The position numbers and the translations under genes are program-made. Source: a virus (taxonomy: Duplodnaviria; Caudoviricetes). From it: 64,000 bases of DNA. Of this stretch, positions 18,012 through 49,468 are shown in pieces; position 1 is the first letter of the stretch, and every line of letters begins with the position of its first letter. The stretch lies in IMG/VR virus record IMGVR_UViG_3300031524_000008, positions 614-64,613 of that record; one strand, given 5' to 3'. A model generated the notes under the pieces. The model made no database searches, was not told the DNA's origin, and saw only the letters and a list, made by a program, of their open reading frames with translations.

Positions 18012-18470
18012 TTATTGCTCCCAAGGGAAGACCTTGAAGGGTACGGGTTTAGTTTTGATTGGCGAAACGTTCTTGAGATTTCCAATAGTAATATGGAATG
18101 GGCAACGAGGACGAGGAGGCAAGCCAAGCTCTACGCGAATTTCTTCAAGACGAGGGCATTTCACCACAAGCCAAAAATAAATATCGCTGCTACGAATCTC
18201 CGGGTCATACTCAAAAGGAATCACTTCCCCTTGATATTTTCGCCAAACAGATTCGTTCTTAGGGCGCTCGTATTTGCATACGGTGACGTGAGCTTGCCAG
18301 ATTGGGGTGTTCAAATTAACACGCAATTCACGCCGCACCCAAGCTTGATAATATTGAATTATCGAGTCGGGCGCGGTCAGCTTGCACGCCCACGAAACTT
18401 CCTTGCGAGCCTTGAAATTAGCCCGCATAGGAGTTGGGTTGTAGATGAGTTTTCCGGTTGCGTTGAACAT
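18012..18470 (-). CDS. 2H phosphoesterase (two HxT motifs)
   Basis: AHVTV and FHITI about 65 aa apart in 152 aa. Confidence 0.75.
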   Translation of the reverse strand: MFNATGKLIYNPTPMRANFKARKEVSWACKLTAPDSIIQYYQAWVRRELRVNLNTPIWQAHVTVCKYERPKNESVWRKYQGEVIPFEYDPEIRSSDIYFWLVVKCPRLEEIRVELGLPPRPRCPFHITIGNLKNVSPIKTKPVPFKVFPWEQ

Positions 18471-32873: not shown

Positions 32874-32950
32874 TGGCTCCTACCCTACGTAACGCTCGTA
32901 GCTGGTCCCGTTTAACAGACGGTCGGTTCGCACTTGCCACCCCGATAGGA
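32874..32950 (-). tRNA. tRNA-Asn(GUU)
   Basis: loop CUGUUAA, G73. Confidence 0.82.
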
Positions 32951-33111: not shown

Positions 33112-33185
33112 TGGTCGAAGCTGGTGGTTACGCTCCACCGTTTGAAGAGTGTCATTCTTCCGTCCTACTATTGGACGAAGCCTCG
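33112..33185 (-). tRNA. tRNA-Val(GAC)
   Basis: loop AUGACAC. Confidence 0.85.
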
Positions 33186-33290
33186 ATTTGCTATCAGCTA
33201 AACCGCCTCCCCTTACAATCGGGTATTTAAGTTCCCCTTTAGCTAGGGATATTTATCGGAAGTAACGCCGCTTTTTTATAACGTGATAAC

Positions 33291-33367
33291 TGGAGCCATT
33301 GATGGGGTTTACTACCCAATTTTCACCGCTACGTGGCGGCGTGCTTTATGAATTAAACTACAATGGC
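33291..33367 (-). tRNA. Thr-like tRNA with 6-nt loop (CA-CGU-A)
   Basis: GCC acceptor and U73 as in the other Thr tRNAs here. Confidence 0.6.
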
Positions 33368-33371
33368 AAAA

Positions 33372-33456
33372 TGGTCGCCGTCACCGCTTTCACGGTATCT
33401 CCGTTCTCCCACGAACGGTGTTTTTATGCGTGTACAAACGCTTAAACTATCAGGCG
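33372..33456 (-). tRNA. Pro-like tRNA with aberrant loop (GU-GGG-A) and D-loop hairpin
   Basis: C1-G72, A73, CCA. Confidence 0.55.
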
Positions 33457-33460
33457 AAAA

Positions 33461-33533
33461 TGGTCGTCATGCACGGAGTTATACCGTGACAGCTACTAGC
33501 TTTGTAGCCTAGTTTCTCTGACGAAACCAGATG
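33461..33533 (-). ncRNA. degenerate tRNA-like element
   Basis: CCA, T-like arm, GCUAC/GUAGC hairpin. Confidence 0.4.
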
Positions 33534-33537
33534 AAAT

Positions 33538-33612
33538 TGGCCGCTAGTCAGGCGTTTGCATCCTGTTCGTCCCGTCTTCAGCGGGCGGCTTTACGATATA
33601 AGCAAACTAGCG
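33538..33612 (-). tRNA. tRNA-Phe(GAA)
   Basis: loop CUGAAGA. Confidence 0.8.
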
Positions 33613-33621
33613 TTATGTTTT

Positions 33622-33696
33622 TGGTGGACCGTTCCGGTACTGCACCGAGTTCTCAAGGCTAAGAGCCTAGAGCATCACTTTTTATGCTTACAGTCC
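33622..33696 (-). tRNA. tRNA-Lys(CUU)
   Basis: loop CUCUUAG. Confidence 0.82.
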
Positions 33697-33786
33697 ATCA
33701 GTGAAATAATATGCCGTGACGGGAATTTATCCTTGTCGTCCATATTACGACCGTAATCGTGCCAGACACGCAATCCTTCACTAAAT

Positions 33787-33861
33787 TGGAGCCACATAAC
33801 GGTACTGCCCCGTTTTCACAGTCTTACCAAGACCGTATAATAGCTTTTATACGAATGCGGC
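33787..33861 (-). tRNA. tRNA-Thr(GGU)
   Basis: loop UUGGUAA. Confidence 0.85.
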
Positions 33862-33877
33862 TAATTAACTAACTTTT

Positions 33878-33970
33878 TGGTACTTCCGCTCGGACTTGCA
33901 CCGAGACCGGGCACTCATCTAGTGCGACTCAGTTTATAAAACTGACTGTGCTGCTTTACACCACGGAAGC
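33878..33970 (-). tRNA. tRNA with UAU (Ile) anticodon and long variable arm
   Basis: loop UUUAUAA; V arm GCACU/AGUGC. Confidence 0.78.
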
Positions 33971-33981
33971 GTTTTTGAAAT

Positions 33982-34071
33982 TGGTGCATCGTGCAGGCTT
34001 CGCTCCTGCGGTGGCTGTTAGGCGTCGGTTTAAAAGACCGCTTCATTCGGCTGGGCTATGAGAAACGATGC
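33982..34071 (-). tRNA. tRNA with UUU (Lys) anticodon and long variable region
   Basis: loop CUUUUAA; ~15-nt V region. Confidence 0.75.
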
Positions 34072-34074
34072 AAA

Positions 34075-34161
34075 TGGTGTATTCGGTGGGACTCGCACCC
34101 ACGGTGGATTTTACTCGTCAGGTTAAGAGCCTGTTCCAATCGCTACTCTGGACACGAATAC
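34075..34161 (-). tRNA. tRNA with CUU (Lys) anticodon and long variable region
   Basis: loop CUCUUAA; ~15-nt V region. Confidence 0.75.
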
Positions 34162-34251
34162 AAATCAAAGATAGGTTTTAACTATGCCGTTTATCCCTAC
34201 ATAAGCGTTACGCCAATAGGCAAATCTTGTCGTAATCGGATTACTTTGAAA

Positions 34252-34326
34252 TGGTGCAACCGTAGGGTATCGCGCCCTCTTCACGAAGTTAAAAGCCTCG
34301 CGCTCATCTACTAAAGCTTCGGATGC
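34252..34326 (-). tRNA. tRNA-Lys(UUU)
   Basis: loop CUUUUAA. Confidence 0.85.
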
Positions 34327-34333
34327 ATAAAAA

Positions 34334-34408
34334 TGGTACTTCGGATAGGATTTGCACCTATATATCACGGACATCAACCGTGCGCCCTGCTAGTTAGACG
34401 ACCGAAGC
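34334..34408 (-). tRNA. tRNA-Ile(GAU)
   Basis: loop UUGAUGU. Confidence 0.8.
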
Positions 34409-34459
34409 ATATCGTAGAAGACTCAGCTAGTTGTAATTACCAGCAGTATCTACGAAAAA

Positions 34460-34533
34460 TGGTGGGCTTACGGAGAGTTGCGCTCCGATTAAACGTTTCA
34501 CAAACGCTTTCCTTACTCTTAGGATATAAGCCC
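34460..34533 (-). tRNA. tRNA-His(GUG)
   Basis: loop UUGUGAA, encoded G-1. Confidence 0.82.
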
Positions 34534-34749
34534 CATATGTTTATCGCAACCAACGCATAATTCCGATTTATGCGTTAGAGCGAATAAAACTGCGGACAGA
34601 CTCAATTTTTCTTTTGTCTCCGTTAGCGTATTCAATTAAAGCTTTCGCGGTATTTGAATTCGTGCCAAAGGAAGTAATAGGAACGGCATTTGGTCTGTCG
34701 GCAATTAATGCGTCCCAAAGTTGTGCGAATCTTGTGTATTTCATAAAAT

Positions 34750-34906
34750 TTAAATCGTCGCGACCCGATTCTCTCCAACTGACGAAGGTTAGAGAAATTC
34801 GTTCTATTTTTCAGCCTCGTTCCTTTCGGACGTATCTTGTTAGATACACCATTCGGTTCCGCTGACCTTTCGAACTCGGCTTGTGCCGTTGCTTCTCGCG
34901 TTTAAA
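34750..34906 (-). ncRNA. putative structured ncRNA, unknown class
   Basis: terminal stem UUUAAA-CGCGA / UCGCG..UUUAAA, internal GAAA hairpins. Confidence 0.45.
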
Positions 34907-35010
34907 GCAATATTCTTAGTAGTTAAGGAAGTTGTTTAAGCGAGGATTTTACTCCATCGTAAACACCTTGATTATATTTTACACTTACTGTTTAGTAAGT
35001 CAATAATTAA

Positions 35011-35087
35011 TGGCCTGTACGGTCGGATTCGAACCGACAATCTCCAAGGCGTAATCGCTAGGTGTTTTACCGTTCAACCACGTACAT
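35011..35087 (-). tRNA. tRNA-like RNA with ~9-nt anticodon loop
   Basis: canonical D and T arms; loop CGAUUACGC. Confidence 0.6.
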
Positions 35088-35094
35088 GACAAAT

Positions 35095-35169
35095 TGGAGG
35101 CGGGTATCGGAATTGCACCGATGTATAATGGGTTTGCAAGCCACGGCCTTACTACTTGGCTAACCCGCC
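35095..35169 (-). tRNA. tRNA-Cys(GCA)
   Basis: loop UUGCAAA, U73. Confidence 0.85.
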
Positions 35170-35247
35170 ATTAAGCAGCCAACTTCACGGAGTTGGTGGC
35201 GTCCGTACAATCGGGCGCTGGTCGCATTGCGTCCTCTGCTCTAACGA

Positions 35248-35321
35248 TGGTATCGCATGAGGGTTACGCTCCCTCTTATGCAAGTTGAGAACCTGCTGTC
35301 CTACTATTAGACGAATGCGAC
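35248..35321 (-). tRNA. tRNA-Glu(CUC)
   Basis: loop UUCUCAA. Confidence 0.87.
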
Positions 35322-35326
35322 ATAAA

Positions 35327-35402
35327 TGGCACCGATGACAGGACTCGCACCTGCTTTTGTACAGCTTGAAAGGCTGTTGAGTTGCTCTTACTCATCACCG
35401 GC
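35327..35402 (-). tRNA. tRNA-Glu(UUC)
   Basis: loop CUUUCAA. Confidence 0.82.
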
Positions 35403-35410
35403 ATTGAATT

Positions 35411-35492
35411 TGGTAGGCGTGACAGGATTCGCACCCGCATGTCTTTCGACGGCTGCTTCTAAGGCAACTGTGTATACATTCCACCACACACC
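35411..35492 (-). tRNA. tRNA-Leu(UAG)
   Basis: loop CUUAGAA, V arm. Confidence 0.87.
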
Positions 35493-35496
35493 TAAA

Positions 35497-35575
35497 TGGC
35501 TCCTGCTCGTGGTAACGCTCCACGCTAAATCTTGGTTAACAGCCAAGCGGTTGTCACTATGACGCCTCAACAGGA
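35497..35575 (-). tRNA. tRNA-Asn(GUU)
   Basis: loop CUGUUAA. Confidence 0.82.
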
Positions 35576-35581
35576 ATAAAA

Positions 35582-35654
35582 TGGCTCGCACTGCTGCATC
35601 CGTAGTGCAGCTACTTCCCCTAACGCGGGGATGTTTTAGATAAACTAAGTGCGA
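35582..35654 (-). tRNA. Asn-like tRNA with 6-nt loop (GC-GUU-A)
   Basis: U1-A72, G73, perfect stems. Confidence 0.6.
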
Positions 35655-35659
35655 ATAAA

Positions 35660-35733
35660 TGGTCGGAAATGAAGGTTACGCTCCCTCGTTTTGTCGGTGT
35701 AAACGACCCGTTCTACTATTGAACTAATCTCCG
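35660..35733 (-). tRNA. tRNA-Val(UAC)
   Basis: loop UUUACAC. Confidence 0.85.
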
Positions 35734-35774
35734 TAATTGCGTTGGGCCATCCAGCCAACGCTGCCGTCCCTAAC

Positions 35775-35849
35775 TGGTTGTCCCACAAGGTAACGCTCCC
35801 TGTTCTCTCGGTTCAAAGCCGAGGGTAATAACTTCTATACGATAGGACA
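35775..35849 (-). tRNA. tRNA-Gln(UUG)
   Basis: loop CUUUGAA. Confidence 0.87.
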
Positions 35850-35857
35850 GTAAATAA

Positions 35858-35933
35858 TGGTGTCTCGACAGGGAATTGCACCCCGAATTCTAGTTTCGAA
35901 GACTAGCGTGATGGTCTGTTTCACTACCAAGAC
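35858..35933 (-). tRNA. tRNA-Arg(UCG)
   Basis: loop CUUCGAA. Confidence 0.87.
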
Positions 35934-36264
35934 ATTTGCGCGTTTACGGGCGCACCCGATTCTGACAACCTAGAATATCAGACGATTTTTAGGAGGCGGA
36001 TACAAGGTGACTTGTACCCTCGACCAAGGATTTATCTAGTAAAAATGTGTTCGAATATAAGGAGTTGCACCCATGTATCTGCGTCTTCTGGACTTATCAC
36101 TGGATAATAGAGAGACGCACGTAACTTTATCAACGTCCGATTTTCACTATTGACTAACCCATAGTTGATTATGAGTTTTCGCTCTTAGCGGCATTCATCA
36201 AATTACCAATGGTAAATGCGGTCGGCACAGAATTGTATTGTCTTACTCTATGATACTATCAAAC

Positions 36265-36382
36265 TGGTCACGACGATTGGATTTGCACCAATAGTGTTCT
36301 GCTACTCCATATTACCGCAGCTTTATGCATCTTGGATGGCTTCGAAGGCCAACGCCTTTCTCTATCTTTTGGCTACATCGTG
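36265..36382 (-). tRNA. tRNA with UCG anticodon and ~43-nt variable region
   Basis: 118 nt, all four arms intact. Confidence 0.65.
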
Positions 36383-36384
36383 AT

Positions 36385-36460
36385 TGGATGTCTCACTAGG
36401 ATTCGCACCTAGACTGAATGGTTCAAGGCCACTAGTGCTGAACTGTTACACTATGAGACA
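36385..36460 (-). tRNA. tRNA-Gln(UUG)
   Basis: loop CCUUGAA (C33). Confidence 0.82.
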
Positions 36461-36466
36461 ATCAAA

Positions 36467-36544
36467 TGGTCGAGCGTGTCGGATTCGCACCGCGACTCAA
36501 GCTTTTTTCGAAAGCCCGTATGTTACTGTTACAACACACGCTCG
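36467..36544 (-). tRNA. tRNA-like RNA with extended anticodon stem
   Basis: CGGGCUU-UCGAAAA-AAGCUUG. Confidence 0.6.
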
Positions 36545-36550
36545 ATTAAA

Positions 36551-36635
36551 TGGTGCGCCGAGAAAGAATTTGCACTTTCACAGCTAATAGCGGGAGTTTT
36601 ACAGACTCTTGGGTTCACTCGTACCCAGCCGACGC
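36551..36635 (-). tRNA. tRNA-Tyr(GUA)
   Basis: loop CUGUAAA, V arm. Confidence 0.82.
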
Positions 36636-36703
36636 AACTAACCCTGACTGGTGCGCGGCGAGAATCAACTCGACAGAGACGCGTTCAGGGTTTTGGTTAA
36701 TTA

Positions 36704-37132
36704 TTAATAAATGATGACGTTCATATACTCAGGCTCAACCTTAGCAAGTCGGTGTGCCATGCTCGTTGTAGTATAAACATCGAAGACGTAAGCTTTTCCG
36801 TGACTTGCTTTCTTTGCTGTCACTGCTCGTCCCCTGTCCTGAATTAAGAAATGCTCACTTGGCAACACATACTTCAAAGAAGGTATGTCAATGTGAGTCT
36901 CAAATGGAAAATCGGGATGGCCCGCAACTGTCACGCCCATATGAGCGCGGCGAACTTGAGGGTCAGCTACTCGTGAACCCCACTTGTCTTCACCTACATG
37001 GTAGTAGGTAATTCGAGCTACGATTGTTCTCGGCTTATTGTATCCGAACTTGTGACGAGAAAACCAACTGGATGCTGGACTACTACAAGTTAGGAATAAC
37101 ATAGTTAATACGATTGCTATTACTTTTTTCAT
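36704..37132 (-). CDS. secreted 3D-domain (lytic transglycosylase-like) protein
   Basis: signal peptide; ITYY, GVTVA, QDRG.AV, FDVY. Confidence 0.7.
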   Translation of the reverse strand: MKKVIAIVLTMLFLTCSSPASSWFSRHKFGYNKPRTIVARITYYHVGEDKWGSRVADPQVRRAHMGVTVAGHPDFPFETHIDIPSLKYVLPSEHFLIQDRGRAVTAKKASHGKAYVFDVYTTTSMAHRLAKVEPEYMNVIIY

Positions 37133-37191
37133 TGCTTTCCTTTCATTTTTTGGGTGATTGGAGAGCAGTCCGACATACTAACTCTCTGAGA

Positions 37192-37323
37192 TGGTGAGTT
37201 TGATAGGATTTGCACCTATAAGGCAACTCTCGACGCTTCAATTCGTCCGTTTGCCACCAGTCTAGGGAAGCTTGAAGGACTTCCTTTGTAACCAGCGCGT
37301 CTGCTAATTTCGCCACAACGCTC
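37192..37323 (-). tRNA. Leu-like tRNA with 22-nt anticodon-loop insertion and enlarged V arm
   Basis: Leu-type D arm; UA-CAA-[22 nt hairpin]-AG. Confidence 0.6.
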
Positions 37324-37327
37324 AACA

Positions 37328-37403
37328 TGGCGGATAGGACGGGTATCGCGCCCGCTTAAACTTGATTGACAATCAAGTATTGATACTTTTCAAACTCCTA
37401 TCC
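37328..37403 (-). tRNA. tRNA-Asp(GUC)
   Basis: loop UUGUCAA, G73. Confidence 0.82.
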
Positions 37404-37408
37404 AAAAT

Positions 37409-37565
37409 TGGTGGGCAAGGAAGGATTTTAACCCCCGGTGTTCGATTAGCTGTTGATAGCGCCAGCAGGAGGTTTATTCATGCTTATTTCTCCTGTCGCC
37501 ACCACATACTAATTTCTATTCCAGCTTAGATGCTGGTGTCTTTCGTCTCTCTTGACTACTCACCC
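37409..37565 (-). ncRNA. 157-nt tRNA-like RNA with ~80-nt variable domain
   Basis: acceptor, D arm, CCAGC-AUCUAA-GCUGG, T-like arm, CCA. Confidence 0.65.
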
Positions 37566-37665
37566 AAAAGCTATATCGGGCTAACCCGTTACATGGTCAC
37601 TAGGAGTAAAGCCGCTATTGAAAGACGGACAATGTACCCTTGCGGGCCGTTTCTCTTTGATGTAA

Positions 37666-37739
37666 TGGCGGGAGTAAGGGGTTACGCTCCCCTGCTAAAT
37701 GCTCGACAGGCACTCGTGCTACTATTACACCACACTCCC
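37666..37739 (-). tRNA. tRNA-Asp(GUC)
   Basis: loop CUGUCGA. Confidence 0.87.
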
Positions 37740-37763
37740 ATTTTCATAAACAGTTCTTTTTTA

Positions 37764-37838
37764 TGGTTGCAGCATGACGAGTCTCACGTCAGCCTCTCCC
37801 ATGAACGCGGGAGTGTACTAATTTTATACTATACTGCG
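37764..37838 (-). tRNA. initiator-like (C1.A72) tRNA with 6/8-nt anticodon loop
   Basis: CUCCC-GCGUUCAU-GGGAG. Confidence 0.55.
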
Positions 37839-37914
37839 TGGTTTCAGAAGTTGGAGTCGAACCAACTATCTCAACGGTTATGAGCCGCGAATGAATTCCG
37901 TTTCACTCTTCTGA
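37839..37914 (-). tRNA. tRNA-Met(CAU), probably initiator
   Basis: loop CUCAUAA, GG D-loop and UUCGA T-loop. Confidence 0.8.
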
Positions 37915-37989
37915 TGGTCAGATACCCGAAGGTTGCATTCGGTATTTCCTACACCCCAAGTAGGCGGATTACTGTCTTCCTCGTATCTG
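37915..37989 (-). tRNA. tRNA-Pro(GGG)
   Basis: loop UUGGGGU. Confidence 0.85.
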
Positions 37990-37993
37990 ATTT

Positions 37994-38090
37994 TGGTTAC
38001 AGGGGCCGGTAACGCTCCGACTACCTCTTGGTTATCTCGTTGGCCTGAAAAAGCCATGAGCCAAGCAAGCTACTTTTGCTCCACCCTGCG
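37994..38090 (-). tRNA. tRNA-fMet(CAU) with 22-nt intron-like insertion
   Basis: C1.A72; CU-CAU-[GGCUUUUUCAGGCCAACGAGAU]-AA. Confidence 0.75.
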
Positions 38091-38095
38091 ATAAA

Positions 38096-38169
38096 TGGTC
38101 GGGAATGATGGTAACGCTCCATCGCCACACCGCCCCAAACGGCGCGTCCTACTATTAGACTAATTCCCG
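38096..38169 (-). tRNA. tRNA-Pro(UGG)
   Basis: loop UUUGGGG. Confidence 0.87.
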
Positions 38170-38174
38170 AAAAA

Positions 38175-38249
38175 TGGTCGCTACAGAGGCGTTTGCATCC
38201 TCTTTCTAGGCTTATGAAACCTGAGTCCTACTACATGAACGATGCAGCG
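38175..38249 (-). tRNA. tRNA-Met or Ile2 (CAU)
   Basis: loop UUCAUAA. Confidence 0.8.
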
Positions 38250-38302
38250 ATAAAAAACACTCACCAAATTACGCTTTACTAAGAGGCGTGGCGAGTTTGA
38301 TA

Positions 38303-38377
38303 TGGTGCTCGTAGGGAGATTCGCACTCCCACTGTCAACGTTCTCAACGTTGCTTCTCTGCGTTGGAATATACGAGC
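38303..38377 (-). tRNA. tRNA with GAG (Leu) anticodon and short variable loop
   Basis: loop UUGAGAA, 75 nt. Confidence 0.78.
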
Positions 38378-38381
38378 AAAA

Positions 38382-38455
38382 TGGTGGCACCGACTGGAAT
38401 CGTCCAGTATTTCCCGCAATTCTAGGCGGGACGTTCTACATTGAACTACGGTGCA
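38382..38455 (-). tRNA. tRNA-like RNA with 8-nt loop and shortened T-loop
   Basis: CCCGC-CUAGAAUU-GCGGG. Confidence 0.55.
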
Positions 38456-38501
38456 TCTTTCCAAGCGTGGGGCATAGTATAGTCGCTCAAAACACACGCT
38501 A

Positions 38502-38885
38502 TTAACACAAAATTCTGTCATCTAACCTCTTATACCTAAATAAGTGCGTTAGAGTATAAGCTATAAAGAAAACGTCAGTTATTCTTCCCGCCCAATCCGC
38601 TGATTGATTATCTTTTAAATACAGTCCAATAATCAAAAAATTCGAAATTAACAATATTGCAATTGATACAGCAATGCTAACTTTGTAGGATTTGTACCTA
38701 CAATTAATAAGGCCCGCCGCTCCTACGACAAGGAGGAAAAGCTGCCAGCCTATTGTATTTCTCAAATCTGGAAAATACATAATGGACCGATGATGAAGAT
38801 GCAATGCCAACGTAAATAGCGCAATAACAAACATTTTAGTAGATAGGAAGGCGTATACCGTCCTCGCTGATAGATTCATTTTCAT
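38502..38885 (-). CDS. 4-TM membrane protein
   Basis: same architecture as 24591 and 25697; GTGTAA-N9-ATG. Confidence 0.7.
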   Translation of the reverse strand: MKMNLSARTVYAFLSTKMFVIALFTLALHLHHRSIMYFPDLRNTIGWQLFLLVVGAAGLINCRYKSYKVSIAVSIAILLISNFLIIGLYLKDNQSADWAGRITDVFFIAYTLTHLFRYKRLDDRILC

Positions 38886-38907
38886 ATATCTACTTTACAC
38901 GTTATTT

Positions 38908-38964
38908 TGGTGGACCGTGAGGCGCTTGCAAGGATTCGTCGCCCCCTATGGTACATGACGGCCC
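38908..38964 (-). ncRNA. 57-nt mini tRNA-Ala-like RNA
   Basis: GGGCCGU/ACGGUCC acceptor with G3.U70, A73, CCA. Confidence 0.55.
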
Positions 38965-39023
38965 ACGTAAATTTTAATTTAGCAAACATAATCTGCCAAG
39001 CTGATTTTAAACAGGAAGTAAAA

Positions 39024-39098
39024 TGGTTGGCATAGAGAATTTTGCAATCTCGACCTATCGCTTATCAAGCGAGTGCTCTGCTTCTGAGCTACATGCCA
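39024..39098 (-). tRNA. tRNA-Ile(GAU)
   Basis: loop UUGAUAA. Confidence 0.87.
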
Positions 39099-39553
39099 AT
39101 CTTGAATTGCTTGAGTAGGTCTATTACTTGTTGCTTCGAAAAGCCATTCTTGCCTAAGTTAACAAAGACGCATACGAATTCAACATTCCCCTTAATATAT
39201 CCTTTTGAAGAGTCGATACGGTCAAGTGATGCGGTATTTGGTTGTGCTCTCTTATTAGGATGCGGCAAAACTAGCTCTACGTCAGTATAAGCACATTTAC
39301 CATTTTGGATTTGCCAAATAGATTCCAAATATTCTTTAGTTATAGAGCATTCTTTAGGTCTGGAACGAGCGTTTTTTCGGGCAAAAAGAAGTATTGATTT
39401 GAATGGGTCAAATGATAACGCTCTATCTGCACCCGCGCATTTTTCATCACAGAACATTGATGCTTTCCCTAGACGGAGACGGCGGTTATACTCTTTGATT
39501 TCCTTATCAAAGGGCTTACCGCATGTTGCGCAAACTAAAGTAATCGTTCTCAT
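39089..39553 (-). CDS. His-Me finger (HNH-like) endonuclease within the tRNA array
   Basis: CATC, FCDEKC, QNGKCAYT, SLDRIDSSKGYIKGNV. Confidence 0.8.
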   Translation of the reverse strand: MRTITLVCATCGKPFDKEIKEYNRRLRLGKASMFCDEKCAGADRALSFDPFKSILLFARKNARSRPKECSITKEYLESIWQIQNGKCAYTDVELVLPHPNKRAQPNTASLDRIDSSKGYIKGNVEFVCVFVNLGKNGFSKQQVIDLLKQFKIGM

Positions 39554-39593
39554 GCTCGCTTTTACACGCAGCGGTGGAGAACGGGAACAAAAT

Positions 39594-39669
39594 TGGTGGA
39601 CCTACTCGGTAACGCTCCGAGTCTTTCGCATTGCAAGTGCGATGTGCTATCTTTTATCACTATAAGCCC
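39594..39669 (-). tRNA. tRNA-Ala(UGC)
   Basis: loop CUUGCAA, G3.U70. Confidence 0.88.
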
Positions 39670-39775
39670 AATTAAACTACTAACATAATCTCTACGGCTG
39701 GCTGCGACGATTGTAGTCACCAAAAGCCTACACTATGTTGTAGTTCGAGTTGCCGAAGTATCTAATCGCGGCAAA

Positions 39776-39964
39776 TTACCAATGATGCCATAGCGGGGCA
39801 GAGCCGCCACTAATAACATCGAGAGCAAAACTGAGCAATTCAAAAAGTGCCAACAGGAAGAAAATCCCGCCGACAAGATACTTTGCCCATTGAATTGTTA
39901 TGTATGTCCACGCAACCCATGCAATGAGTGCGAACAACGCTGTATAGAATAGTAATATAATCAT
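39776..39964 (-). CDS. small 2-TM membrane protein
   Basis: GTGTAA-N8-ATG at 39964; hydrophobic. Confidence 0.65.
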   Translation of the reverse strand: MIILLFYTALFALIAWVAWTYITIQWAKYLVGGIFFLLALFELLSFALDVISGGSAPLWHHW

Positions 39965-39983
39965 ACTACTCTTTACACCCAAA

Positions 39984-40052
39984 TGGCTCGATAGTTCAGA
40001 ATACCGCACTGCTTCGGATATTATCGCCTTCTCAGGCCATCTGTCCCATCGA
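39984..40052 (-). ncRNA. degenerate tRNA-like element
   Basis: acceptor-like stem, T-like arm, CCA. Confidence 0.35.
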
Positions 40053-40070
40053 GAGGGCAGACGAATTAAA

Positions 40071-40144
40071 TGGCACGCATCCAAGGACTTGCACCCTGAC
40101 GAATGGTTTTGGAGACCATCATGCTTCTGTTACACCAGACGCGT
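40071..40144 (-). tRNA. tRNA-Trp(CCA)
   Basis: loop CUCCAAA, G73. Confidence 0.88.
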
Positions 40145-40146
40145 AT

Positions 40147-40225
40147 TGGCTCAATGTCGAGGGTTCGAACCTCGTTCCCCCCGCTTTTTACAGCCGGGAA
40201 TTTTAACCAGTTAAACTAACAAAGA
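40147..40225 (-). tRNA. tRNA-like RNA with enlarged anticodon loop
   Basis: canonical GG and UUCGA; loop ~GCUGUAAAAAG; weak acceptor. Confidence 0.55.
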
Positions 40226-40302
40226 TGGTCGCCACCGGACGTTATTCTCGTCTTTCTTCGGCCTTCATGTGGCCGCTGTTCTAATATGTTGAACTAATGG
40301 CG
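40226..40302 (-). tRNA. tRNA-like RNA, loop ACAUGAA (no U33)
   Basis: cloverleaf with atypical T-loop, CCA. Confidence 0.55.
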
Positions 40303-40304
40303 AT

Positions 40305-40378
40305 TGGGGCAAAGGGTGGGATTTTAACCCACGTTTCCGCTTTTAAGGGCGACGTTCTGAACGCTAAACTACCTTCGC
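40305..40378 (-). tRNA. tRNA-like RNA with 8-nt loop CCUUAAAA
   Basis: cloverleaf, C73, CCA. Confidence 0.55.
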
Positions 40379-40390
40379 ATGGTACTAAAA

Positions 40391-40465
40391 TGGAGCGGGT
40401 AGGGGAATTCGCATCCCCACGCAAGCGTTGGCAACGCCCGATGCTAGCTATTACATCATACCCGC
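40391..40465 (-). tRNA. tRNA-Gly(GCC)
   Basis: loop UUGCCAA, U73. Confidence 0.88.
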
Positions 40466-40466
40466 A

Positions 40467-40531
40467 TGGCGCTTCGGTTTACCGAATTCTCTCTCATACA
40501 GTTGAGAGCGTTTTAGTTATTAAACTAGCGC
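40467..40531 (-). ncRNA. miniature tRNA-like RNA
   Basis: short acceptor, D arm, CUCUCA-ACUGUA-UGAGAG, 4-nt T-loop, CCA. Confidence 0.5.
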
Positions 40532-40779
40532 AAAAATTGGGGATAGCACACGTTTGACGGCGTGCTATCCTTTCCAAAAACTAACACCTATTCAGAGTTC
40601 CGCGCCACTCTAGGTGGTTTGGTAAGCCGGATTGCTCTTTTCGAGGGTGTTGACCGGACATTTGTTCCATTCAGGCTGGAACTCTAAAAGCGCCTTCTGA
40701 GTTTCTTTCGACGGCCTCCCTCTTCGGGTCGGTGTTCCATCGTTTCCACTATATGTTCTAAAAAATCTGTTTTGCGACT

Positions 40780-40815
40780 AAAAAACCCGCTGTCTTTTTC
40801 TGAGAGCAAGCGGGT
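40780..40815 (-). terminator. intrinsic terminator of the putative attenuator upstream of the tRNA array
   Basis: ACCCGCU...AGCGGGU followed by a U run. Confidence 0.8.
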
Positions 40816-40845
40816 CGTCGTCTTTCCTATCTGGCTTGCTACTCT

Positions 40846-40971
40846 CTAATCTGCTGTATCTCCCGGCTTTTCCTCAGAGGTCAGATAGGCAGACCATCTT
40901 TGGGCGTCACACCCGCCTATTTCGAGGCTCGGCTGACTATATGTAAAGTTTCTATTTAAAATCGGTTTCAT
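40846..40971 (-). CDS. putative 41-aa attenuation leader peptide
   Basis: MKPILNRNFTYSQPSLEIGGCDAQRWSAYLTSEEKPGDTAD*, starts just after the promoter; stop abuts the antiterminator strand. Confidence 0.6.
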   Translation of the reverse strand: MKPILNRNFTYSQPSLEIGGCDAQRWSAYLTSEEKPGDTAD

Positions 40972-40982
40972 CGTTATACTAT

Positions 40983-41069
40983 ATCTTACACTCTGTTTCG
41001 TCTTTTGTCAACTTTTTCTGTAAGATTTTCTTTGTTTCTTCACTCTACCTCAGTTTTTTTCGTTGTCAA
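40983..41069 (-). promoter_or_regulatory. tandem sigma70-type promoters for the tRNA operon
   Basis: TTGACA(41011)-N17-TAAGAT and a second TTGACA(41069)...TAGAGT. Confidence 0.75.
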
Positions 41070-41126
41070 CAGAGTTTTTCGTTTTCTTTTTGGTTTCGAT
41101 TCACTCTGTTTGTTTCTAAGGTTCCT

Positions 41127-41675
41127 CTATCCTACTGCATTTTGGTCTTTCGTCAACAGCTTTTTCAAAAATTCTTCAAGTCTTGCGGAATCTTCTCGGT
41201 TGTGGGGGTTAAAAGTTGCTAAATCGAAGCGAGGAATTGCTTTTGTGCCAGCGATTCTCCATCCGTGACCTGTTCCCCCAAAGCCTTGTTTTGAATGATT
41301 CAGAAAAGCAATACACGCATTAGCCCTAGAGAGAATTCCGGCATTTCTGTTCATCATCTGCTTTGCGCCTTTTGAAAGCTGGTCGTAAACAGGATGATGG
41401 GCACGAGCTATGAACTCCCACTCGGGATTGTCCTGCCACGTAACCAAATTCTTTTCGACAATCAGTTCTTCGTTATATGTCTTCCAAGGAAGATAAAGAA
41501 TCACATGGGATGGACTAACACGATTTCCGCCACGGGCAAAGGCGGCGTCAGAACCTAAAGCGTTTCCCGTCGCAATATAACCTCCTGATAAAACGATGAC
41601 CTCGCCTATTTTTTCCATAATAGCAGCAGTCCATAAGGAAATATCACGAGAACCTATACATGCAATTCTTACCAT
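41127..41675 (-). CDS. DprA/SLOG-family protein
   Basis: ACIGSR, TGNALGSDAAF, RN, GGTG. Confidence 0.75.
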   Translation of the reverse strand: MVRIACIGSRDISLWTAAIMEKIGEVIVLSGGYIATGNALGSDAAFARGGNRVSPSHVILYLPWKTYNEELIVEKNLVTWQDNPEWEFIARAHHPVYDQLSKGAKQMMNRNAGILSRANACIAFLNHSKQGFGGTGHGWRIAGTKAIPRFDLATFNPHNREDSARLEEFLKKLLTKDQNAVG

Positions 41676-41677: not shown

Positions 41678-42343
41678 TTAATGCCCTGATAAAGTATTCT
41701 TATCGTGATGGTCTATTACAACAGTTTGCTTTCCCCTCATAATCTCCATTACATCCTGAAATGACACGGGGCCACCAAAGTTGTCGATGCCGCAATCGAG
41801 AGCTTTATCATCAAGAGCTTTTGGATTACGCCCTTCATCGTTACCGTGACTATGGCCGCTCAACGCAATAGAGCCGTGCTGCATTTCATCCCAAATACGA
41901 AATGGAAAGTGCGAAGCAACATAAGGCACACCATCAATGCGTCCAAGTACATAGTCGCCCAAAAACATTACTTTATTACCATACGCTAAAGGATATACCT
42001 CAACTAACGCGCTTCCATACTGTCGAAGGACTTCACTCTTATATACGGCTTTCACGCCGCTATTATGGTTTCCCCATAGTAAATAGATGTACCCATTTAG
42101 CTCTGAAAGTAATTGCTTAAAGCGCGAACCATCAGGGTCGTTGAATACAAAATCACCAAGACAAAGAACGTTATCGTCCTTTCCTACAAGGTTATTCCAA
42201 TTCTTTTTTACACCCTCGTCATGCGATTGAATATCTGAGTAGCCCCGAGGCTTCCACAAGAATTCGCGGTCATGGTGAAAGTGTGTGTCTGACACAATCC
42301 ATAATGGGGTTTTTTTAGTATTAAAATTTACGTGTTGTGACAT
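41678..42343 (-). CDS. calcineurin-like metallophosphoesterase
   Basis: SDTHF, LGD, GNHN, GHSHG. Confidence 0.9.
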   Translation of the reverse strand: MSQHVNFNTKKTPLWIVSDTHFHHDREFLWKPRGYSDIQSHDEGVKKNWNNLVGKDDNVLCLGDFVFNDPDGSRFKQLLSELNGYIYLLWGNHNSGVKAVYKSEVLRQYGSALVEVYPLAYGNKVMFLGDYVLGRIDGVPYVASHFPFRIWDEMQHGSIALSGHSHGNDEGRNPKALDDKALDCGIDNFGGPVSFQDVMEIMRGKQTVVIDHHDKNTLSGH

Positions 42344-42344: not shown

Positions 42345-42794
42345 TTATTCTACATTGCATACGAATCCAAACTCACCAACGGTAGGAATTACGAAATTGT
42401 TAAATTGCTTTTCAATTACATCTTCGGGTACTTGACGCACTCGACCCTTATTTCTCAATTTAAGAACGTCTAATGGCACTCGAAAAACATACGCTGCTGT
42501 TTCTGCGTCACATCGTTTTGCTATGTCTAGGAAATCTTTTCGCGCTTTCAAATGATAATTGCAAGCGTCTATTAAAACAGATTTACCCTGTTTCAACAGA
42601 TGCTCGGTAACTGCATATACTGTTTGAAAAACCTTTCCGCTAACGGTTTGGTCGCCTTCACCATTACCAACGATTGCGCGAAACTCATCAGTGGAAAGAC
42701 GTACGACCGAAGGGTTAAGTGAGACATAATCTTTCGAAAAGCGAGTCTTGCCAGATGCAACGCATCCGACCATAAGTATTAATGTTGGTTTCAT
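42345..42794 (-). CDS. polynucleotide kinase-like P-loop kinase (AAA_33)
   Basis: GCVASGKT, STDEFR, IDA, RN..R...VPEDVI. Confidence 0.85.
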   Translation of the reverse strand: MKPTLILMVGCVASGKTRFSKDYVSLNPSVVRLSTDEFRAIVGNGEGDQTVSGKVFQTVYAVTEHLLKQGKSVLIDACNYHLKARKDFLDIAKRCDAETAAYVFRVPLDVLKLRNKGRVRQVPEDVIEKQFNNFVIPTVGEFGFVCNVE

Positions 42795-44784: not shown

Positions 44785-45429
44785 TTATTTTTTATGGAAT
44801 GCCAATATTCTATCTAACCACTCATTCCATTGTTCTATAGATAGGTTGCTTTTAGCTTTATTGCATAATCCACACGCTGGTACACAATTTTCGCGGATGT
44901 ATCCAACCTCGTTATTTATTCTATCTATTCCATTATAGATATATGGACCGTTCGCATCACAAGAATTCATACTTTGGTAGGGTTTAACTCCACAATAACA
45001 GCATCGGGAACTTGTAATAGTTCTAACGTCTTCATCTATGAGAGTAAACAATAGATTTCTCCTTTTTGCGGCGGCTTTATATTGTCTGACTAATCTTGCG
45101 AAAGAAGCTTCTCCAAATGGCTTTCGCAAACTCGCACCAAAATCAAAATGGTCCGGGTACATTTTATTGAATGTTCCGCATCCAGAAATTTCGGGGTGCT
45201 TTCTTTTATTCCTGTTTATTGTTTCTTTGTTTAATTCGTAGTATTTTAAGTTTTTTGCATCGCGGGCTTCTTTGTGTGATATATAGTATTCATTCACCCG
45301 CTGTTTATTACAAGCTTTACAAACCGAACACAACCCGTCTTTCTTCTGTTTGTCTTTATGAAACCTTTTTATAGACTGTTTTTTATCACACTTACTACAT
45401 TTTTTTGATTGCTGATTTCGGGATTTCAT
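44785..45429 (-). CDS. HNH-like homing endonuclease
   Basis: CSKC..CKAC; NGIDRINNEVGY..NCVPACGLCN.AK. Confidence 0.82.
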   Translation of the reverse strand: MKSRNQQSKKCSKCDKKQSIKRFHKDKQKKDGLCSVCKACNKQRVNEYYISHKEARDAKNLKYYELNKETINRNKRKHPEISGCGTFNKMYPDHFDFGASLRKPFGEASFARLVRQYKAAAKRRNLLFTLIDEDVRTITSSRCCYCGVKPYQSMNSCDANGPYIYNGIDRINNEVGYIRENCVPACGLCNKAKSNLSIEQWNEWLDRILAFHKK

Positions 45430-46072
45430 CGTGTTCTATAGTTTTTTTGAAGGAAAGGTTTCCTGCTGTATGATACACAATTATACCTTCTGCGGGGAAA
45501 TTATTTTCTACCACGCCACCATTATGAATTGCCACGCTACCAAAACAAACGAGTGCGTCTAAAACTCTTTTGATTTGTACCGTATCGAACATGCCTTCGT
45601 AAAGGATGGGGACAACCCTACAGCACGCAGGCGCATATTCTTGCTTTTCCTTTAGAGGAGAGACTACGCCGTTGACGACAAATAGTGGACTTTCCGCTCC
45701 ACCGAGCATGACGGGAGACCAATCAAAATAAGCGTGCGGGCGCGTATCTACCCAACGACCCACGTTGAATAGCGAGAAATGCTTTTCCTTTTGACCGTAT
45801 CCACGTTGAATACCTGCGCCCCACCACTCACCATAATGACGACCGACTCCTAGGGCCATAAGTTCATCCTTATTAGCGTAGGCCCAGCGAGCAAAGCCAT
45901 AGTTGTCTTGCTCGGGCGTAATCCAACGAGTACGACTACCAACCAAAAACTCTCCTTCGTCTGTGATTACAATAGACGCGTTCGTACCGTCGATTTTTTC
46001 AGTCAACGACATTTTCCTCGACAGACGAGGCATCTTTGGGAATTCGACGAATTCATTATTTGCAATATTCAT
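45395..46072 (-). CDS. RNA ligase (Rnl2-like adenylyltransferase domain)
   Basis: FPKMPR, TEKIDGTNA, SRTR, GEWWG, VPILY, EGIIV. Confidence 0.8.
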   Translation of the reverse strand: MNIANNEFVEFPKMPRLSRKMSLTEKIDGTNASIVITDEGEFLVGSRTRWITPEQDNYGFARWAYANKDELMALGVGRHYGEWWGAGIQRGYGQKEKHFSLFNVGRWVDTRPHAYFDWSPVMLGGAESPLFVVNGVVSPLKEKQEYAPACCRVVPILYEGMFDTVQIKRVLDALVCFGSVAIHNGGVVENNFPAEGIIVYHTAGNLSFKKTIEHDEIPKSAIKKM

Positions 46073-46095
46073 GGTTCCCATTCTAGGCGGATTTT

Positions 46096-47241
46096 CTATT
46101 CCGTCAAGAACTTCCTCTCGCCCTTTAATCGAAGCCTCGACTTCTTCGTATCCAGTTCCTCCCAAAAGAGTTGCGCGTCCGTAGCAGAACTCATGCCACC
46201 CACGTACTCAAATGAATAGCAGAAGCGGTTTGACACAAGCCATTTTTTGTCACGAGTATCCAGCTTTCTAACTTTTCGGCTATGAGAGGTTTCTACCCAT
46301 TTCTCACTTTTGAGACGATACGCTATCATCGCAGGATGAATAGTCTTTGAGTAATACGTTCCTCCTCCAGCCCTAACCATGGAGCCAATATAATCAGAAA
46401 CTTTCACTCCAATCCCTAATCCTTGAAAGTCTGGCAATACAACAGTACGAGATTCGCGCCAGCAATCCTTTTTATAAGCATTAGGATGAGCGAGGGCGGC
46501 AGAGAAAGCTACGGGATTATCATTCCACGTAACTAAAAAACATCGCGCCCCTTTATTTATGTCAGCACTTAGATAGTGATAGTGTTTAAAAAGTTCCCAC
46601 GCTTCATATTTGCTTCGGAATACTTTAAGTGAAATTTCAGGTCGTCGAAGACTCCCACGCGGTAAAACGTGAGTCAGTCCCTCTGTAGGATTGTAAACCC
46701 AATCCGGTTGTAAAAATTCAATAATATCAGCGTGACAAGAAGCGACGACAACTTTCTTGTTAGTATTACGCACGTACTTTTGTAAAGCGTTCGAAGCGGA
46801 CTTAGCAACATTCCTATCTACTACCGAGGTAAATTCATCAATTAAAATAATCTCGCTCTCCTCTGACATCGCTCTAGCTACATTACATCGAAACTGCTCC
46901 CCATTACTTAATGCCTTGAAAGGACGAAGCCAAGCGGGTACATTCCCAAATCCTACAGCACAAAATAACTCTGTTGCCTTTTCTGGAGTTATGTAATCGA
47001 AGTTACTTATTACTGCTAATTCATCCCACACATACTCAGGAATTTTACCAAAAGTTTTCAGCAAGGTACTCTTACCGCTACCGCTTGGACCGTATATAAG
47101 TCCTATGTTCCAATTTTCAGGAGGAGTAATGTTATTAGTTATAATTGAAACACTTTCCTCGACATGGGGAACGTCAAACATCTGTTCTGCGACGGCTGTA
47201 TAATCGTCGTGAACAATAGGATATTTTAAAACAATATCCAT
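46096..47241 (-). CDS. ABC-type ATPase fused to a GNAT acetyltransferase
   Basis: GPSGSGKS, LSNGEQFR, IDEF; HYL, RTVVLPDFQGLGIG. Confidence 0.85.
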   Translation of the reverse strand: MDIVLKYPIVHDDYTAVAEQMFDVPHVEESVSIITNNITPPENWNIGLIYGPSGSGKSTLLKTFGKIPEYVWDELAVISNFDYITPEKATELFCAVGFGNVPAWLRPFKALSNGEQFRCNVARAMSEESEIILIDEFTSVVDRNVAKSASNALQKYVRNTNKKVVVASCHADIIEFLQPDWVYNPTEGLTHVLPRGSLRRPEISLKVFRSKYEAWELFKHYHYLSADINKGARCFLVTWNDNPVAFSAALAHPNAYKKDCWRESRTVVLPDFQGLGIGVKVSDYIGSMVRAGGGTYYSKTIHPAMIAYRLKSEKWVETSHSRKVRKLDTRDKKWLVSNRFCYSFEYVGGMSSATDAQLFWEELDTKKSRLRLKGERKFLTE

Positions 47242-48265: not shown

Positions 48266-49468
48266 TCATTTTTTTAGAACTTGGTAATATAGTTTTTTAA
48301 CAGCATCACGACTCAACTGCTTTCCATCCAAAATAGAGAAGACATAAGAAGCGCGGTTAGTTTGTCCATATGCTTCAAATATCTTCTTAGCTTGTGCGGC
48401 ACGTCCTTTTTGGAAACCGTACTGTATAGCGAGATGTTTGATGCTTTCAGCAAATGCTTGCATACCCGCGATGATACGCTCAACTTCTTTGGTAGCGTCA
48501 GCCACCTTAGAAGCGTCATTACGCGACTGCTCGGCAATTTCGTAGTCGATATTTTCGAGAACGTAATCGTAGAATTCTGAGAAAGACTTACAATCAAGGG
48601 TTATCCACAAATCAAGAACCTTGTCGAAAGACGACAATTCAGACTTTAACTTGTGAAGTGCAAGATACCATGCGGACTTGACCTTACGAATATGCTGTCC
48701 ACGACCGAAGTACACGCAGAATCCTTCGAATCCACGAGCTAACTCTGGAACAGCTTGTGCGCCAGTAGTAGATTGATACTCTTGTGGAGCGTTGAATTCG
48801 CGAGTCTTCGCGTAGTCTAGCGCTTGGATTGCAGCAAACATTTCATCAAAAGTATTGAACTTGAAACGACGTGGACGCTTAACTCCAAGGTTAACCGCAC
48901 GAGAGTCTAGCTCGTCTTGAGAACGTAAACTATAATCGTTGTGGTCGATAACCGCAGTCAAATATAACTCGGGTTCGTCACCATAGCTGATGACAATTTT
49001 GTTAGTAGGAGAAACCCATTCGAAAACCAAAGATTCTCGTGAAGTTTCTATTTCGCCGGGAAGAGAAGTAAAAACGCGAGGATACTTTTGCTTCAAGATT
49101 TCGATTTCGAAACCGTTTTCAAGCTTGGATGCGTCCACAGTTCCACGAGTACGTATGATATACTCACCCTTATATTTGGAAACGATAAGGGTTGAACCAT
49201 CGACTTTTTCCATAAGTTCGACGCCCTTCATGGATGACGGGGTTGGAACAATATCGCTCCTCTCATCAAAGTTAAAAAATTTCTTAAACGACAATGATAT
49301 AGGCGACCAATCTGAGAGACGCCATATTGAAGACCTATATATTAGGGTTTCTTTTGTCCATTTAGCTCCTATATTTTTAGGATGAATTAGAACACATGCG
49401 TCACCCGCGAACACACAGGGCTTAAAATCAAATTCCTCAGTATTAATTTTGGATATATCGGCTGTCAT
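48266..49468 (-). CDS. RNA ligase (T4 Rnl1-like)
   Basis: KFFN, EKVDGS, TRG, FEWVSP.NKIV..Y, EGF, KVKS.WY. Confidence 0.85.
   Translation of the reverse strand: MTADISKINTEEFDFKPCVFAGDACVLIHPKNIGAKWTKETLIYRSSIWRLSDWSPISLSFKKFFNFDERSDIVPTPSSMKGVELMEKVDGSTLIVSKYKGEYIIRTRGTVDASKLENGFEIEILKQKYPRVFTSLPGEIETSRESLVFEWVSPTNKIVISYGDEPELYLTAVIDHNDYSLRSQDELDSRAVNLGVKRPRRFKFNTFDEMFAAIQALDYAKTREFNAPQEYQSTTGAQAVPELARGFEGFCVYFGRGQHIRKVKSAWYLALHKLKSELSSFDKVLDLWITLDCKSFSEFYDYVLENIDYEIAEQSRNDASKVADATKEVERIIAGMQAFAESIKHLAIQYGFQKGRAAQAKKIFEAYGQTNRASYVFSILDGKQLSRDAVKKLYYQVLKK

Follow-up and report, generated by a model that had tools for sequence, protein, structure and literature searches.

The window studied here, 64,000 nucleotides (nt) of a virus of the Caudoviricetes (positions 614-64,613 of the IMG/VR record IMGVR_UViG_3300031524_000008), carries on its minus strand a tRNA gene that, judged from its sequence, is a standard initiator-type phage tRNA-Met with a 22-nt insert in its anticodon loop. 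The record measures 64.6 kb and has a CheckV completeness of 27%. With its loop of 29 nt, this tRNA, called candidate A below, cannot decode as an unprocessed RNA. A tentative reading, to which we give less than even confidence, is that the insert is lineage-specific and is excised from the transcript by a nuclease, the RNA being then resealed by a kinase, a phosphoesterase and an Rnl1-like RNA ligase of the phage. Two tRNA-like genes located nearby also contain inserts, namely a Leu-like gene (candidate B) and a gene of 157 nt (Table 1).

The sole anomaly of the candidate A cloverleaf is the anticodon loop, which counts 29 nt instead of 7. The scanner written for this work finds seven acceptor positions, made of six pairs and a C1xA72 end, a D-stem of 4 base pairs (bp) with A11:U24, a 5-bp anticodon stem and a 5-nt variable loop. 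A 5-bp T-stem closes the AGCGTTA loop of the array; all stems are in register and are followed by a discriminator A and by CCA. In bacteria, the C1xA72 end and the A11:U24 pair of the D-stem are defining marks of the initiator tRNA. Both are present here, the C1xA72 end being unpaired, together with the CAU anticodon. The G:C triplet that initiators have at positions 29-31/39-41 is incomplete, with two of the three pairs (U29:A41, G30:C40, G31:C39), and uninterrupted phage homologues share the whole anticodon arm of candidate A, this incomplete triplet included. The gene stands between two tRNA-Pro genes, with the spacers of 4-5 nt that are usual for the array.

Candidate A is reported neither by ARAGORN with default settings, nor by ARAGORN with introns allowed, nor by Rfam down to E 10. 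Candidates A and B both have 29-nt rather than 7-nt loops, and neither has an RF00005 match, be it at the gathering score or at E <= 10. With relaxed settings (-i -ps90), ARAGORN describes candidate A as tRNA-Met(cat) i(34,22). A covariance model trained on 22 class I tRNAs of the window, and run unfiltered over 18.5 kb, also aligns it (23.5 bits, E 1.7e-5 over the 18.5 kb), with 27 letters where the model has 5 and with no non-standard pair, in a local alignment that omits the C1xA72 end. The initial annotation had proposed that removal of 22 nt from an fMet-type tRNA at 37994 restores a CU-CAU-AA loop, and scripted deletions, ARAGORN and the homologues described below all agree with this proposal. 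After deletion of 22 nt, ARAGORN finds tRNA-Met(cat) at 7 of 16 offsets, and Ile(gat) at one. Twelve other lengths between 16 and 28 nt were tried, and calls were obtained for 18 (two offsets) and 24 (one offset) alone. Thus, the tRNA-Met call is consistent at 22 nt only, with a restored CUCAUAA loop. When the scanner was applied to the whole window, candidate A was the sole long-loop parse within a single gene, the others bridging two adjacent tRNAs; one spurious long-loop locus was found on the plus strand. As a control for chance, such a cloverleaf was obtained in 3 of 100 near-dinucleotide-preserving shuffles of the window, against one on the real minus strand (candidate A) and none on the plus strand.

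The anticodon arm of candidate A, with a gap of 0-30 nt allowed, was then used as a search pattern in IMG/VR and in a genome collection. In IMG/VR, 22 loci match, and in 20 of them the arm is uninterrupted (gap 0); the two remaining loci, whose gaps measure 11 and 25 nt, do not correspond to tRNAs. The genome collection gives 41 loci, four with gap 0; among the 37 gapped ones, four were inspected and none is tRNA-like. For 17 of the 22 viral loci, and for each of the four gap-0 genome loci, the ARAGORN call is tRNA-Met(cat). The anticodon-arm exons of candidate A are identical to the conserved arm at 22 of 22 positions. In an alignment with nine uninterrupted genes, the insert forms a single block of 22 columns, and the remaining differences lie in the D-loop and the T-loop, where candidate A follows the odd elbow type of its own window and the uninterrupted homologues have a normal elbow. 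The existence of homologues devoid of the insert therefore indicates that these 22 nt are an intervening sequence. The number of C1xA72 ends among the uninterrupted homologues was not used, as ARAGORN end calls vary. Closer relatives were sought in IMG/VR, in JGI metagenomes and in a phage collection, with both protein anchors and DNA patterns, and no homologue of A or B was detected in the relatives found. These are L001, a near-identical fragment of 6 kb without the array, and the G001/L004 lineage, whose ligase is 41% identical.

As AU is repeated at both borders of the insert, its position is equally well given as following C34, A35 or U36. Its sequence is single-copy in the window, where neither a second copy nor an antisense target of either insert (A or B) was found within 3 mismatches. 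No ribozyme or other Rfam family was found in the two inserts. In the predicted fold of the enlarged arm, the outer stem is retained and C32-U33-C34 pair with a GAG of the insert; a 4-nt AUAA bulge on the 3' side, a 1x2 internal loop and a 6-bp hairpin using U36 complete the structure, in which the insert is folded back onto the anticodon. This arm is somewhat more stable than its shuffles (z -1.8), 12 of 200 of which fold equally well. Two of its traits recall pre-tRNAs, as position 32 pairs with the third base from the end of the insert and the 3' junction is in a bulge. An origin of the inserts as tandem copies of their flanks is not supported, since equally good alignments are given by 581 of 2000 shuffles for A, and by 1949 of 2000 for B.

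How such an insert would be removed can be proposed by analogy with RNA repair in phage T4. In cells infected by T4, the host nuclease PrrC cuts an anticodon loop, and T4 Pnkp and Rnl1 reseal it. In the lineage of the window, a 22-nt intervening sequence would have been gained directly 3' of the anticodon. A nuclease of the phage or of the host would make two endonucleolytic cuts in the enlarged loop, presumably leaving 2',3'-cyclic phosphate and 5'-OH ends, and the tRNA body would keep the two exon halves together. The kinase and the phosphoesterase of the phage would then heal the ends, and the Rnl1-like ligase would seal them, with the same chemistry as in T4 anticodon-loop repair. Matches at the family level suggest that the phage encodes such a T4-type healing and sealing set (kinase, phosphoesterase and Rnl1-family ligase). 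More generally, the polynucleotide kinase, the 2H phosphoesterase and the two RNA ligases that had been listed in the initial annotation are each matched in Pfam or PHROG. The kinase, phosphoesterase and ligase genes are located directly upstream of the tRNA array, a few kilobases from candidate A. As in T4, a kinase, a phosphoesterase and an Rnl1-like ligase thus stand beside a tRNA array and could join exon halves held by the tRNA body. It should, however, be noted that T4 mends one break and removes nothing, whereas candidate A would need two cuts.

Group I introns are known in bacterial tRNA anticodon loops, for example in cyanobacterial tRNA-fMet and tRNA-Leu. The tRNA types and the interrupted loop are the same as here, but the catalytic core of these introns takes about 200 nt or more, and the insert of candidate A, with 22 nt, has no Rfam intron match. 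A closer likeness is found in huge phages. Lak megaphage tRNAs contain "enigmatic introns", which were detected using the eukaryote settings of tRNAscan and are polymorphic among genomes, and which were reported without a mechanism (Devoto, 2019; PMC6784885). The two cases share an over-long phage tRNA gene, an insert in the anticodon loop whose removal restores a tRNA, relatives with and without the insert, and an insert too short or too featureless for self-splicing; in both, splicing is undemonstrated. Unlike the Lak tRNAs, candidate A is an initiator-type tRNA-Met from a peat phage, its insert is 22 nt long and is present in no relative, and the window shows no recoding, as its open reading frames (ORFs) are long under table 11. 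"Intronic sequences" are also mentioned for tRNAs of 262 recoded jumbo-phage genomes in a 2026 survey (PMC13037316). A literature search found no paper demonstrating protein-dependent splicing of a phage tRNA.

Inserts were also looked for in 32 sequences totalling 571 kb, made of the arrays of contigs with the odd T-arm, of the contig L003 and of the window, in which ARAGORN makes 529 normal calls. Its intron calls at the default threshold number 35, of which ten are free of overlap with a normal call and four to six are credible by eye. Most intron calls in phage arrays were rejected as artefacts, due to two adjacent tRNAs or to long variable arms. Two clean tRNAs, with inserts on the same side of the anticodon as in candidate A, come from the complete 296-kb genome G012. 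In one, a tRNA-Lys, the insert measures 35 nt and follows U36; the other, a tRNA-Asn (or His) that scores 52.5 bits in Rfam, is interrupted by 51 nt. A third G012 gene is Phe-like, and its 30-nt insert is identical to the letter in G025 though the exons differ; removal of this insert restores a poor loop only. A 7-mer common to the inserts of candidate A and of the G012 tRNA-Asn was not used as evidence, being expected by chance in about 4% of cases by our estimate. The two insert-bearing phages encode RNA ligases, Rnl1-like in G012 and of the Rnl2 type in G025. Comparable with these cases, candidate A is a phage tRNA gene that reads as a tRNA again once its anticodon-loop insert is taken out, and insert-free relatives of it exist. 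It can be grouped with the tRNA genes of huge phages that have short, unexplained inserts, of which it is a particularly clean example. The clean tRNAs of other large phages, and the association in G012 of three insert-bearing tRNAs with an Rnl1-like ligase, argue for the proposed excision and resealing.

The motif of the Phe-like insert, CTATG..GGTAA..CCGTAAAA, is common to paralogues. It defines a family that spans three phage contigs (L049 13395-13497; L061 4463-4568 and 5037-5140; L058 1299-1439), the insert being identical over 30 nt in two.

Several observations weigh against splicing of candidate A. Its insert is present in none of the 20 phage tRNA genes that share its anticodon arm. 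The initial annotation had seen no strict bulge-helix-bulge, and this holds in the fold as well as in a very permissive motif scan, which found at the loop no 22-nt motif whose excision would restore the loop. Large phages that have tRNA arrays commonly encode RNA ligases, the presence of which is therefore not specific. The EndA family (PF01974) was found in none of five phage records, among them that of the window (G000, 27% complete) and G012 (100% complete), whereas the control matched in four archaea; RtcB and Tpt1 were not found in the 27%-complete record of the window. No endonuclease candidate was found among the ORFs that flank the tRNAs: by Atlas leads, the ORF at 36704-37132 resembles wall hydrolases with a 3D domain and that at 38502-38885 a membrane protein. 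The ORF at 39089-39553, considered as a splicing nuclease, is a DNA endonuclease of the HNH/endonuclease VII type.

RNA evidence was sought in Logan contigs, rather than reads, from three metatranscriptomes and one DNA run. No splice joint at the insert of A or B was found in these contigs and, among those listed, no RNA contig covers candidate A. Candidate B and the 157-nt RNA are both unspliced in the RNA libraries; an RNA contig at 37057..37298 carries candidate B with its insert and without a gap. It must be kept in mind that absence cannot be established from contigs, that mature 75-nt tRNAs are under-sampled in such libraries and that contig depth is a poor gauge of RNA level. Another contig, with 12 differences in 173 nt (about 93% identity), spans the three tRNAs directly downstream of candidate A and departs from the window at 37990, where A would begin; no candidate A is present there. 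In this contig the Met-like tRNA 37914..37839 shows three double compensatory changes in its T-stem, from which it can be concluded that the contig derives from a living relative. Another contig departs from the window at 37191, one base past the CCA end of candidate B. As strain contigs break at the borders of A and B, both genes look like strain-variable cassettes. In the DNA run X2, none of the contigs listed lies between 36791 and 38301. Unspliced RNA alone and a non-conserved insert had been named in the initial annotation as outcomes that would contradict splicing. The results go part of the way in that direction, by tests of low power: candidate B and the 157-nt RNA are seen unspliced, and 0 of 20 homologues have the insert.

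The same material has a second strain difference, at 36633-36695, where a variant skips 61 nt and has 4 other letters instead, in a weak tRNA-like element (model match 36551-36635). Since this variant appears in both an RNA run and a DNA run, it is a DNA-level indel. The virus comes from peat: of the words sampled from 33000-41000, 18 DNA runs contain 45-99%, while 5-13% are present in 6 RNA runs.

Of the other explanations, the one that survives best, which we hold only a little less probable than excision and resealing, is that A and B are recently disrupted genes. Both would be dying members of an array with fast turnover, neither spliced nor used; the 22-nt insertion of A would be too recent for decay, and B would be a non-folding recombinant of two array tRNAs. 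The initial annotation had taken candidate B for a Leu-like tRNA with a 22-nt hairpin insertion and, in the restored loop, A33. The insert, its hairpin and A33 stand; the identity as a tRNA is less secure, since the acceptor, judged by homology to the Leu tRNAs of the window, is paired at 4 of 7 positions and fails to complete a cloverleaf, and the variable arm measures about 35 nt. Whatever the threshold or the deletion tried, ARAGORN makes no call (0 of 13 lengths x 16 offsets), and the covariance model recognizes the T-arm alone (11.2 bits, E 0.14). The arm of B folds no better than its shuffles (z 0.0), and no uninterrupted counterpart of it exists in IMG/VR, where neither of two matches is a tRNA. 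Its 5' part aligns to the Leu-CAA gene at 31456 and its T-arm is identical (19/19) to that of the Ile-GAT gene at 34362..34344; B therefore looks like a Leu/Ile chimera. Probably, candidate B is a degenerate chimera that is transcribed and stands outside any splicing pathway. For this gene, disruption, or use of the tRNA body as a scaffold as discussed below, is clearly more likely than splicing.

For candidate A, the case for disruption is supported by its context. Many of the 56 tRNA-like matches of the array at E <= 1e-3 are low-scoring or odd, none of 20 homologues shares the insert of A, the 3' boundaries of A and B coincide exactly with the points where contigs of other strains break, and the gap in the listed X2 contigs covers both genes. 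However, A has no second defect, as all its stems pair and its arm exons have kept the conserved sequence throughout, and its insert is not a slipped copy of the flanks. Moreover, up to three insert-bearing tRNA-like genes within 900 nt, in addition to the three of G012, are many for accidents, and B is transcribed.

It is also conceivable, though we hold it a little less probable still, that the insert-bearing genes give stable unspliced tRNA-like RNAs. The working part would then be the enlarged anticodon arm, with the tRNA body as a scaffold for processing and stability (RNase P, CCA end); the arm might act as a decoy for, or be bound by, a host anticodon nuclease or an initiator-tRNA-specific factor. 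The third insert-bearing RNA is of interest in this respect. This 157-nt RNA was not detected by the covariance model; ARAGORN with -ps90 gives it a CUA anticodon and a 58-nt insert at about 37468-37525. It is unspliced in the RNA contigs and the deepest RNA of the stretch (20.7 in X19 and 18.2 in X21, vs 2-8 for its neighbours), a comparison for which the limits of contig depth given above apply. In a strain variant, the one stem change is from G-C to G-U and keeps the pair, a small hairpin loses one closing pair, and five of the eight listed changes are in loops, so that the stems are kept. The Phe-like family of other phages shares an insert motif, yet removal of the insert gives a poor loop. 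Phage tRNA arrays are described as an answer to tRNA-cutting defences (PMC10264068). On the other hand, such RNAs have no known target or partner and no complementary site in the window, the hairpin is modest in A and, in B, no better than in shuffles, and A is missing in a close strain.

Introns of archaeal and eukaryal tRNAs have a bulge-helix-bulge and are removed by the EndA/Sen endonuclease together with the RtcB or Trl1 ligase. An intron of this type in candidate A, which would imply an archaeal host or an EndA-like enzyme of the phage, is very improbable: the insert lies near the anticodon, pairs with loop bases (C32 with its third-from-last base, like the anticodon-intron pair of pre-tRNAs) and has its 3' junction in a bulge, and the phage has kinase, 2H and Rnl1-like ligase domains reminiscent of Trl1, but the site is 36/37 (or 34/35, 35/36) instead of 37/38, the fold has a 4-nt bulge, a 3-bp central helix and no 5' bulge instead of two 3-nt bulges round a 4-bp helix, no motif restores the loop, EndA is unmatched in the five phage records and Tpt1 in the 27%-complete record of the window, and the C1xA72 end is a bacterial mark.

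The array in which these genes are found is very plastic, lies on the minus strand and counts about 56 tRNA-like genes. Genes are on this strand as far as about 50 kb, the array itself occupying 24-40.5 kb. Over 23000-41500 it is much bigger than standard tools show, with 56 tRNA-like genes vs 24 for ARAGORN and 27 for Rfam. The covariance model gives 68 matches at E <= 1, 67 of them on the minus strand; the 56 at E <= 1e-3 include the 22 training genes.

Many members of the array are odd: some combine AGCGTWA T-loops with GG-less D-loops, some have an 8- or 9-nt anticodon loop, and some are class I tRNAs whose variable arm is long. The AGCGTWA T-loop (A54/U58 swapped, G55) with a D-loop devoid of GG is found in about 12 tRNAs, for example at 38096-38169, 37666-37739 and 35248-35321, and T-arms of this type occur in tandem in 34 IMG/VR contigs (L005-L038). 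The tRNA at 37764-37838 (minus) is a second one with a C1xA72 end; its anticodon loop counts 8 nt, and the base of the stem consists of three C:G pairs. The tRNA at 35011-35087 (minus) has a 9-nt anticodon loop. Long variable arms are carried by class I tRNAs at 33878-33970, 33982-34071 and 34075-34161 (minus), namely Ile(TAT) and two of the four Lys-like tRNAs at 33622-34326. The variable arm of Ile(TAT), 23 nt long, is kept in G001, a relative at 41% identity (L003 5664-5756). At 24036-24110 (minus), a tRNA of the amber-suppressor type with anticodon CTA adjoins an HNH gene (23701-24033). A match to the abiF RNA motif lies between two tRNA genes at 38259-38295 (minus), with 34.0 bits vs an Rfam threshold of 37.

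Outside the array, a cluster of genes related to ADP-ribose and RNA ends occupies 9508-23032 and 44262-44783 (minus); it includes NUDIX, PARP catalytic and regulatory, 2H-SAK, cREC receiver, histidine phosphatase, Macro, dual-specificity phosphatase and NADAR domains. Between the genes of the two RNA ligases, an ORF at 46096-47241 (minus) encodes a P-loop ATPase and a GNAT acetyltransferase in one protein; a role in tRNA acetylation is a guess. Free-standing homing-type endonuclease genes (LAGLIDADG, HNH/endonuclease VII-like) are many, and one of them is inside the tRNA array.

Table 1. Positions in the window of the insert-bearing tRNA-like genes, of further array tRNAs and of the RNA repair and homing-type genes.
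Feature	Positions	Strand	Basis or remark
Candidate A, initiator-type tRNA-Met(CAU), 29-nt anticodon loop, encoded CCA	37994..38090	minus	Own scanner, ARAGORN, own covariance model
Anticodon CAU of candidate A	38056..38058	minus	
22-nt insert of candidate A, drawn after U36	38034..38055	minus	One of three equivalent placements, same product
Third tRNA-like RNA with insert, 157 nt	37409..37565	minus	Between A and B; 7/7 acceptor, D-arm, T-arm, CCA
Candidate B, degenerate, chimeric Leu-like tRNA-like gene (CAA), 29-nt loop	37192..37323	minus	Sequence, fold, homology
22-nt insert of candidate B	37264..37285	minus	Single-copy in window; 6-bp hairpin with 7-nt loop
Polynucleotide kinase (AAA_33)	42345..42794	minus	Pfam 3.7e-21; PHROG polynucleotide kinase 2.7e-19
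Phosphoesterase adjoining kinase	41678..42343	minus	PHROG 547, 3.6e-38
Rnl1-like RNA ligase	48266..49468	minus	Pfam RNA_lig_T4_1, 1.9e-14
Rnl2-type RNA ligase	45395..46165	minus	Pfam RNA_ligase 6.2e-14; PHROG RNA ligase 2.2e-29
2H phosphoesterase (2H-SAK)	18012..18470	minus	Pfam 3.3e-07
ATP-dependent ligase	42826-44013		
Extra tRNA-Ala(TGC)	39594-39669	minus	Own scanner/model
Extra tRNA-Pro(GGG)	37915-37989	minus	Own scanner/model
Extra tRNA-Thr(GGT)	33787-33861	minus	Own scanner/model
Extra tRNA-Val(GAC)	33112-33185	minus	
Extra tRNA-Gly(TCC)	32497-32571	minus	
Extra tRNA-Gln(CTG)	28026-28099	minus	
Three extra tRNA-Ser	30023-30305	minus	
Homing-type endonuclease genes	8640-9497, 55574-56341	plus	
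Homing-type endonuclease genes	39089-39553, 44785-45429, 49443-50030, 14615-15274	minus	

Bacteria and their viruses are held to lack protein-dependent tRNA splicing, and short inserts that do not self-splice have been reported in phage tRNA genes since 2019 without a mechanism. As a test case, candidate A is unusually clean, with an insert of 22 nt, exons that form the same arm as many uninterrupted homologues and a repair set nearby. The broader idea that a bacterial virus runs protein-dependent tRNA splicing, in which short inserts directly 3' of the anticodon and lacking a bulge-helix-bulge are cut out by a new kind of nuclease and rejoined by the phage kinase, phosphoesterase and Rnl1-like ligase, is possible but doubtful. 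If it were true, the RNA repair genes of large phages would double as a splicing machine, having as substrates candidate A, the Lys and Asn tRNAs of G012 and the Lak introns. If candidate A is not spliced, it shows how fast variants are created and lost in phage tRNA arrays, or that tRNA bodies are reused as scaffolds of small RNAs. Its splicing would give phage RNA ligases a second role and would mean that a new endonuclease is still to be discovered.

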